Numbered from the stretch's first letter, positions 19,285-20,799 are shown. The stretch: 64,000 bases of DNA from a virus (IMGVR_UViG_3300021425_000006); one strand, 5' to 3'. Notes: generated by a model from the letters alone, not told the origin. Numbers and translations: made by a program.

Positions 19285-19715
19285 ACGTATACGAAATTTT
19301 AAATGAACAATATAAAGATGCATACTGTTCCGACAAGTGCTGCGGTGCTGAAATTAAAAGAGCAGACTGTGTATGTCCAGCTGATTGTAAACACTGTAAC
19401 TGTAATGATCCTAAAGTTGATGAAGGAGTCTTTGATACAATTAAAAATAAATTTAAAAGTAAAAAAGTTGCTCCTAAACCAAAACTAAAACGCAATCCTA
19501 AAATTAAAGTTGCTAAAGGTGCAGGACAAGTTAGTCGTGCAAGTGACGGTAATGTGTATGTATGGGCTGGCGCACAATGGGTTAACAATGAGACAGCAAA
19601 AATGGCTCCTAGAAAAATTTCAGATGAATTAGGAAATCCAGTACTTATAGGTCTTGCAAATCAAATTAAGAAAGCAGGTTTATCAGATATTGTTAAACCT
19701 TTACTCAGTGTTTAG
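19281..19715 (+). CDS. Hypothetical protein with Cys-rich metal-binding cluster
   Basis: CSDKCCGAEIKRADCVCPADCKHCNC (8 Cys in 26 aa); ATGA overlap with the upstream gene. Confidence 0.7.
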   Translation: MNVYEILNEQYKDAYCSDKCCGAEIKRADCVCPADCKHCNCNDPKVDEGVFDTIKNKFKSKKVAPKPKLKRNPKIKVAKGAGQVSRASDGNVYVWAGAQWVNNETAKMAPRKISDELGNPVLIGLANQIKKAGLSDIVKPLLSV

Positions 19716-19942
19716 AAAAACGGCAAATTAGTCTTTTTAGTAGTTTCAATATTTTCTTCAATAAGTTTACCCATTACTTCTCTATCTTCAGGACTAGTCC
19801 AATAGGCCTCATCTAAGGTAAGGCCTCCTCGCATATACCAGCATAATTTAGACAAGTCGTGTTTCATCTGTTTGGTATTTTGCTCGAGGACCTTAACTTC
19901 AGCTAGGATCTCTGGAACGGTCCAGGTCAGGATCCTTATGCG
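19712..19942 (-). CDS. gp51-like/tail-chaperone extension ORF, predicted to be reached by -1 frameshift from the gp26-like gene
   Basis: Open -1 frame RIRILTWTVPEILAEVKVLEQNTKQMKHDLSKLCWYMRGGLTLDEAYWTSPEDREVMGKLIEENIETTKKTNLPFF*; internal ATG at 19867 has no clear SD. Confidence 0.7.
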   Translation of the reverse strand, partial: RIRILTWTVPEILAEVKVLEQNTKQMKHDLSKLCWYMRGGLTLDEAYWTSPEDREVMGKLIEENIETTKKTNLPFF

Positions 19943-19948
19943 AAAAAA
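19905..19948 (-). promoter_or_regulatory. Programmed -1 ribosomal frameshift signal
   Basis: In-frame T_TTT_TTC (19948-19942), 5-nt spacer, stem-loop AGGATC..CTGGA-CCGT-TCCAG.GATCCT (19936-19905). Confidence 0.7.
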
Positions 19949-20799
19949 TTGGATTGATCAAATGTAATCGGCACATCATAAGTTGCCGGTACACCTTTTT
20001 CGATATCCTCAGGTGAACTGTTTACAGTCATTGGCTTAACAGCAAACATTGCTTTTTGCGAATTAAGATGATCAGTAATTGTATTAAAGAACTGTTTATC
20101 AGCGTTTGCAATAAACTCGTCAATATGTTTACGATTGTCTACAACATCTTCACCAATTTGAATTGATACAATACCTGTTGATATCATTCCAACTGTTAGC
20201 TCAGTAAGTTTTACAAATGAATTTGTAAATGCTTGAAGTTTTGCTTCATCTTCAACAGCATCGTCGTTTACAATATTAAAGATTCTTTGTTCTTCAAAAG
20301 TCTTAAGAGCATTTTTTGTAAACTCTTTATATGTTAACGGTCTAAGACGTACAATCATATCTCCTACCTGTACAGTATCGTTATACTCAGCATCTGCAAA
20401 ATTATCCATAATACCGCGTAAGTCTACATTCATTTCAACTTCTTCGCCTGTAACAGGTTTCTTAATGGTAATGCCCATTTCTTCACCGTATGTTGCCATA
20501 CGAATTGCTATTAAACATGCATCAAGATCGATACTTGGCATCATCCATGCATTTTTAATATTAGGAATACAACTTTGTATTACATCTACTGTTGCTTGAC
20601 CGTTAAGTAAAGCGTCTGGTGTTTTAAACGTAAGCTCGTCTTTTGCTGTCATTGAAAATACCGGGAGCTCACCACTTTCAGTATTTTCAAATACCCCGCC
20701 GGGGTAGAACTTTCCTTTACTAGGAAGAGTTATATACAACTTAGGTTGACGAAAATACTTCTGTAAAGGATTAGATCCTTGTTGGTTTATTTCTGACAT
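19936..20799 (-). CDS. gp26: Baseplate hub assembly chaperone gp26-like
   Basis: NPLQKYFRQPKLYITLPSKG..Y, MTAKDE, DLDACLIAIRMATYGEEM motifs. Confidence 0.75.
   Translation of the reverse strand: MSEINQQGSNPLQKYFRQPKLYITLPSKGKFYPGGVFENTESGELPVFSMTAKDELTFKTPDALLNGQATVDVIQSCIPNIKNAWMMPSIDLDACLIAIRMATYGEEMGITIKKPVTGEEVEMNVDLRGIMDNFADAEYNDTVQVGDMIVRLRPLTYKEFTKNALKTFEEQRIFNIVNDDAVEDEAKLQAFTNSFVKLTELTVGMISTGIVSIQIGEDVVDNRKHIDEFIANADKQFFNTITDHLNSQKAMFAVKPMTVNSSPEDIEKGVPATYDVPITFDQSNFFA

Follow-up and report, generated by a model that had tools for sequence, protein, structure and literature searches.

A probable programmed -1 ribosomal frameshift in a gp26/gp51-family baseplate hub assembly gene of T4-related giant phages

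The stretch of DNA analysed here (64,000 nt, referred to throughout as the window) comes from an uncultured giant T4-related phage. On its minus strand lies a gene of the gp26/gp51 family of baseplate hub assembly proteins, and close to the 3′ end of this gene a second open frame begins in the -1 phase, overlapping the stop codon of the first. The question raised by this layout is whether the second frame is a small gene in its own right, the remnant of one, or the continuation of the first gene by recoding. Short and long tail assembly chaperones made by frameshifting are regarded as nearly universal among phages with long tails, T4 being named as the exception (PMC5009743). The explanation preferred here, which we consider very probable, is a programmed -1 ribosomal frameshift within a single gp26/gp51-family gene, giving a 287-aa short form (comparable to gp26) and a 362-aa long form (comparable to gp51).

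The gene, its slip site and the overlapping frame

The features of the locus are as follows (positions are those of the window).

19936..20799, minus strand: 0-frame gene, short form of a gp26/gp51-family baseplate hub assembly protein (287 aa; PF12322, phrog_150)
19942..19948, minus strand: slippery heptamer T_TTT_TTC, in X_XXY_YYZ phase with the 0 frame (read directly)
19905..19936, minus strand: two-tier stem-loop, AGGAUC/GAUCCU plus CUGGA/UCCAG, a probable frameshift stimulator
19712..19942, minus strand: -1 frame extension, 76 codons plus stop, which together with residues 1-286 makes up the 362-aa long form (by translation)
20877..23756, plus strand: tape-measure-like gene, 959 aa (phrog_58, tail length tape measure, E 8.6e-13)
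23760..25505: T4-type portal gene, next after the tape-measure-like gene (PF07230, E 1e-109)

The 287-aa core matches Pfam family PF12322 (T4_baseplate; E 9.9e-13, 48.7 bits against a gathering cut-off of 24.5) and no other family in Pfam, and it matches the baseplate hub family phrog_150 with an E value of 8.9e-16. A ribosome-binding motif (GGAG) lies 6 nt 5′ of its ATG. The core profile finds this gene alone in the window (19936..20799, minus strand). A sequence search of the PDB gave no match, and a fold search of the PDB with a model of a long form (pLDDT 91) also gave none, i.e., there is no solved relative of the fold.

The 3′ end of the core gene reads ...TCC AAT TTT TTC GCA TAA, with the stop codon at 19938..19936 (minus strand), so the in-frame U_UUU_UUC of the original prediction was confirmed by direct reading. 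The -1 frame is open from 19942 to 19715 (minus strand) and its stop occupies 19714..19712. Translation gives a predicted fusion of 286 + 76 = 362 aa with the junction SNFF-RIRILTW, in agreement with the 76 open codons to 19712 and the fusion of ~362 aa that had been proposed. On the 5′ side of the slip site the -1 frame has just 5 open codons (about 5 across the relatives), and within the extension the first ATG, GTG or TTG is codon 25, where no Shine-Dalgarno sequence is present; the earlier statement that this frame lacks a good independent start was thus correct. All elements of the original observation were in this way confirmed.

A frameshift at this point would proceed as follows. Most ribosomes would stop at the TAA, releasing the short form, and a fraction would slip back one base on U_UUU_UUC, where both tRNA-Phe could re-pair (UUU to UUU, and UUC to UUU), probably aided by the hairpin 5 nt downstream. 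The slipped ribosomes would then read 76 more codons, producing a long form that carries an extra C-terminal helical module.

Conservation of the heptamer, the extension and the downstream RNA structure

The original prediction proposed aligning homologous loci for the heptamer, and 133 related loci were compared, ranging from 27 to 97% in protein identity. These comprise 80 IMG/VR relatives (53-97% identity; two of them interrupted by contig ends), eight cultured jumbo phages (Phosso, Atu_ph07, PA5oct, XbC2, CBB, RaK2, BF17 and pEa_SNUABM_19; 27-33% protein identity to the window) and 45 further loci with the frameshift layout. T_TTT_TTC was retained in phase at 131 of the 133, well beyond what chance would give, including 80/80 of the IMG/VR relatives, each with a 76-aa extension, and 8/8 of the cultured phages. 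The further loci gave 43 cases of T_TTT_TTC, one of T_TTT_TTA and one of T_TTT_TCC. At the slip site of IMGVR_UViG_3300028383_000118 (L121) there are five Ts rather than six (AAT TTT TCC), a sign either of an assembly error in the homopolymer or of a variant that would use single-tRNA slippage on U_UUU. A +1 shift or a sequencing error as the source of the layout was rejected, as no locus has an offset other than -1 and independent assemblies as well as finished genomes show this layout.

The columns of the heptamer have an entropy of 0. Phe codons elsewhere in these genes vary (TTT 844, or 82%; TTC 187, or 18%), so conservation of the two residues does not by itself account for an unvarying TTT TTC pair. 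This bears on the possibility that there is no recoding, and that the -1 frame is the decaying remnant of a once-fused gene with the heptamer kept for its Phe-Phe residues. Phe-Phe is indeed conserved in the protein, but the TTT TTC pair is never swapped for a synonym, despite the small share of TTC codons elsewhere, and the extension retains an exact length (76 aa in the clade of the window) and a coding-type pattern of variation across more than 130 loci, leaving decay with hardly any probability.

Every relative has a homologous extension, 70-77 aa long, after the heptamer. Among the eight cultured phages the position of the 0-frame stop varies, from 6 to 36 nt past the heptamer, and the -1 frame of this length is always the one that comes next. 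A tblastn search with the 76-aa extension matched Sinorhizobium phage Phosso and Agrobacterium phage Atu_ph07 from residue 1, in both cases immediately 3′ of their gp26-like genes. Searched alone against Pfam and PHROGs, the extension gave nothing useful (phrog_11771 at E 0.022), while extensions of RaK2-like phages match phrog_18291, a family of unknown function. No Pfam domain was precomputed for the extension-only reading frames; the domain precomputed on gp51 homologues is PF28602.

The coding signal of the -1 frame was followed across 74 unique loci. Entropies at codon positions 1/2/3 were 1.05/0.65/1.46 for extension codons 1-25, a coding pattern, and 0.91/0.52/1.44 for codons 26-76. The first start codon in the -1 frame is scattered from extension codon 1 to codon 36. 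A conserved independent start is excluded by these two results, since the start positions are scattered and yet codons 1-25 vary as coding sequence.

The same data were weighed against expression of the downstream frame as a separate small protein, by termination-reinitiation or from its own start, with no trans-frame fusion. Annotators have so called it in the records of Phosso, XbC2, CBB (KU574722), BF17 and pEa_SNUABM_19, where it appears as a separate hypothetical protein, and gene callers yield products of 40-102 aa. An ATG at extension codon 1 is present in 11 of the 74 unique loci, and in the loci read (e.g., Phosso and Atu_ph07) it overlaps the TGA stop as ATGA, making coupled re-initiation possible. 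However, the window itself offers no ATG, GTG or TTG before codon 25 and no Shine-Dalgarno sequence there, the coding pattern of codons 1-25 is maintained regardless of where the first start falls, and the invariant, in-phase heptamer is left unexplained. A separate protein is accordingly judged very unlikely, a view that the natural fusions described below also favour. In the remaining records the extension is unannotated in RaK2 (NC_019526) and PA5oct (NC_071039), it is given as a truncated 40-aa frame in Atu_ph07 (MF403008), and a frameshift annotation is absent from all eight GenBank records of the cultured jumbo phages.

The spacer between the heptamer and the hairpin of the window is GCAUA (5 nt), and the two-tier stem-loop that had been described (AGGATC/GATCCT plus CTGGA/TCCAG) was verified at 19936..19905. 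Its predicted energy is -13 kcal/mol, with a z of -1.68 against shuffled sequences and 13 of 200 shuffles as good, a modest signal when taken alone. Across the 74 unique loci the mean MFE of 50-nt segments reaches its minimum (-12.3 kcal/mol, compared to -4 to -8 elsewhere) in segments starting 6 nt past the heptamer. Segments at this offset have a mean z of -1.96, and in 53% of loci they rank within the lowest 5% of the locus's own gene. Pairing in a common 12-bp stem is 71.7%, compared to 31-48% for the stem slid along the sequence, and the stem shows some compensatory changes (partial covariation). Structure is thus enriched just past the heptamer across the loci, but RNAalifold on 61 sequences gave no single consensus structure, and RaK2-like phages show no detectable excess of structure past the heptamer. 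The AGGAUC arm pairs with different 3′ arms in different subclades. In the window, a second possible 3′ partner (AAGGUCCU) for the AGGAUCCU arm occurs at 19887-19894 (minus strand), about 50 nt past the heptamer, and in several relatives such a longer-range helix is predicted as the MFE structure. A downstream RNA stimulator is likely on these grounds, though not a universal one, and alternative stimulators may exist.

The heptamer and the structure together bear on transcriptional slippage, in which RNA polymerase would add one U within the T6 run and no ribosomal frameshift would take place. The site is a homopolymer of six T, the same protein would result from either mechanism, and the phase of the run is set in any case by the conserved N-F-F residues. 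Against this, known programmed cases in bacteria mostly involve runs of 7-9 or more (see also PMC5009743), the heptamer is made a canonical X_XXY_YYZ by the C or A conserved at its 3′ end, and the enriched structure lies 5-6 nt downstream, at the distance usual for -1 ribosomal frameshifting. Transcriptional slippage is improbable for these reasons, although a slightly better candidate than a separate protein. From how the heptamer is phased and how far downstream the structure lies, we infer that the slippage is ribosomal.

Long forms encoded in frame and the relation to T4 gp26 and gp51

Searching 1.84 billion proteins with a profile of the extension returned 485 matches, mostly small mis-called reading frames. 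About 18 of these are metagenomic proteins of 319-351 aa in which a PF12322 core continues in frame into a C-terminal extension. The junction in these proteins (..F-R-x-K/R-L/I-I/L..) falls exactly where the frames of the window would join, i.e., at the slip site, a position not accounted for by a separate small protein. What these fusions show is limited to the fused protein being viable and under selection. No in-frame long form was found among the cultured phages of the phage collection. Overall, comparison of the related sequences argues very strongly for a programmed -1 frameshift, and the recoding originally proposed is strongly supported by the heptamer, by the -1 coding signal from the slip site onwards and by the natural in-frame fusions.

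Metagenomic phages with an in-frame long form (the loci L095 and L096, and proteins such as P0246 and P0252) share the core, the extension and the position of the junction with the window, and differ in encoding the long form in a single frame. The IMG/VR loci L095 and L096 carry a tandem pair, in which the gene directly after a short, core-only gene is a long one that includes the extension in frame. The short gene ends in ...SNFLPETKTLMS, with TTT CTA in place of the heptamer, and unlike the gene of the window it has lost heptamer and extension alike. Identity between the short and long paralogues is low, about 34% over 77 aa; the short gene is similar to the Cys-less clade of the window, and the long gene to the Cys-containing clade. 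This points to acquisition and not to a recent duplication. In L096 (positions 1-13014 of IMGVR_UViG_3300028854_000012), and also in L095, the genes flanking the pair encode a transposase-like protein (phrog_506) and two HNH or homing endonucleases.

The two clades differ in a pair of zinc-ribbon-like CxxC motifs. Neither CxxC pair varies among T4-type gp51 homologues, in-frame long forms or the other cultured jumbo phages, whereas the clade of the window has lost all four Cys. In the protein of the window (residues ~113-120 and ~261-272) the columns of CPxC and CxxC are occupied by KKPVTGEE and SSPEDIEKG, and no Cys is present there.

In T4, gp51 is needed for hub assembly yet absent from virions, gp26 is listed as a hub assembly chaperone, and the roles of both in hub assembly have been unclear for decades (PMC3004832). 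T4 gp26 (208 aa) and gp51 (249 aa) both match PF12322 and phrog_150, and gp51 runs about 45 profile positions beyond gp26 at the C-terminus; by these profile matches, the two T4 proteins are paralogues that differ by a C-terminal module. T4 has two PF12322 genes, compared to one in each of the four complete genomes counted (RaK2, PA5oct, Atu_ph07 and BF17) and one in the 64,000 nt of the window.

Alignment of the in-frame long forms with T4-type gp51 by hhalign gave an E value of 3.5e-5 and a moderate probability of 72% (positions 33-334 against 25-257), colinear to both C-termini. The extension alone matched the gp51 C-terminus at E 0.002, the outcome of the profile comparison that had been proposed for the -1 frame. 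This signal appeared with larger alignments and in-frame long forms only; a nine-sequence alignment of the extension gave hhalign probabilities of 0.7% and 0.2% against single T4 gp51 and gp26 sequences, respectively. AlphaFold models made for a long form (pLDDT 91) and for one gp51 homologue (pLDDT 92) have a common topology at their ends, consisting of a beta-hairpin, a short helix, a long helix, a short helix and a long helix, and the slip site corresponds to the first of the short helices in the model. Fold matches of the long-form model in BFVD are to T4-like baseplate hub assembly proteins, with E values down to 3e-14.

Our reading of these profiles and models is that T4 gp26 has its counterpart in the short form and T4 gp51 in the long form. 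The link of the locus to gp26 and gp51 made in the original prediction is therefore supported for the PF12322 core and for the long form. It does not hold for the -1 frame itself, which had been described as a gp51-like reading frame: this corresponds just to the C-terminal helical module that is present in gp51 and absent from gp26.

Gene neighbourhood and comparison with known systems

The gene adjacent to the core gene is transcribed divergently from it and matches phrog_58 (20877..23756, plus strand), supporting the earlier identification of a divergent tape measure gene at this place. A divergent tape-measure-like neighbour is also found in PA5oct, RaK2, CBB, XbC2, BF17 and pEa_SNUABM_19. 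In the virion mass-spectrometry table of CBB, the tape-measure-like CBB_251 is an abundant virion protein (29 peptides) and the gp26-like CBB_250 is missing (PMC5259590). Similarly, gp335 is marked as MS-detected in the annotation of PA5oct and gp336 is not so marked. The lack of CBB_250 and gp336 among detected proteins is consistent with a chaperone role. Elsewhere in the window there is a segE-like GIY-YIG homing endonuclease gene (17541-17996, plus strand; PF19835, E 2e-35) with a gp46/SbcC-like recombination nuclease gene just upstream (15531-17306), and four consecutive giant reading frames of 2004, 1888, 1838 and 2790 aa (35207-61730, plus strand).

No published report of a frameshift in a gp26/gp51-family gene was found in the literature searched, which covered papers available without subscription. 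If T4 relatives do make gp26-like and gp51-like forms from one gene by recoding, the two T4 genes would be tied together as a short/long pair, and there would be a concrete, testable model for the role of the extra tail of gp51. The annotation of this locus would be corrected in RaK2, PA5oct, Atu_ph07, CBB, the 121Q-like coliphages and many metagenomic phages, and U_UUU_UUC would join the natural, deeply conserved frameshift sites of bacterial viruses.

Compared to T4, the core of the window shares PF12322 with gp26 and gp51, and the predicted long form shares the end topology of gp51. The arrangement differs: T4 has two divergently transcribed paralogous genes and no frameshift, whereas the window has one gene with a putative -1 frameshift. 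The extension of T4 gp51 is also shorter (about 50 aa, compared to 76 aa).

The other known system is the -1 frameshift of tail assembly chaperone genes, as in gpG/gpGT of lambda and E/E+E' of P2 (Levin 1993; Xu, Hendrix and Duda 2004; summarised in PMC5009743). A 2016 review of recoding describes G-T frameshifting as conserved in long-tailed phages 'except T4' (PMC5009743). The locus of the window resembles lambda G/GT in several ways. One gene would give a short and a C-terminally extended product by a -1 slip near its 3′ end, as judged here from sequence; the neighbouring gene is tape-measure-like, with the layout conserved despite low sequence identity; and the product is probably absent from virions, as suggested here by the CBB table. 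It differs in that the G/GT gene lies between the tube and tape-measure genes, co-oriented with and directly upstream of the tape measure, whereas the gene of the window is divergent. The heptamers also differ (G_GGA_AAG in lambda, U_UUU_UUC in the window), and searches of Pfam, PDB sequences and PDB folds gave no homology to gpG-type or other known tail assembly chaperones. A G/GT-type switch, as originally envisaged, is thus retained with respect to two forms that would share an N-terminus through a -1 slip, and not with respect to homology or gene orientation, so that describing the short and long forms as equivalents of lambda G and GT is an analogy only.

By the same analogy, we infer that both forms would act as non-virion assembly chaperones of the hub/tape-measure complex, in a ratio fixed by the frameshift. 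A broader proposal, to which we give slightly less than even weight, is that the gp26/gp51 family is a non-homologous functional counterpart of lambda G/GT, with the core handling the hub and tape-measure complex and the C-terminal module present on a minority of the molecules. The ratio of the two forms would be set by -1 frameshifting in the jumbo phages, T4 and some metagenomic phages would have split the pair after a duplication, and T4-type contractile tails would then be no exception to the two-form rule.
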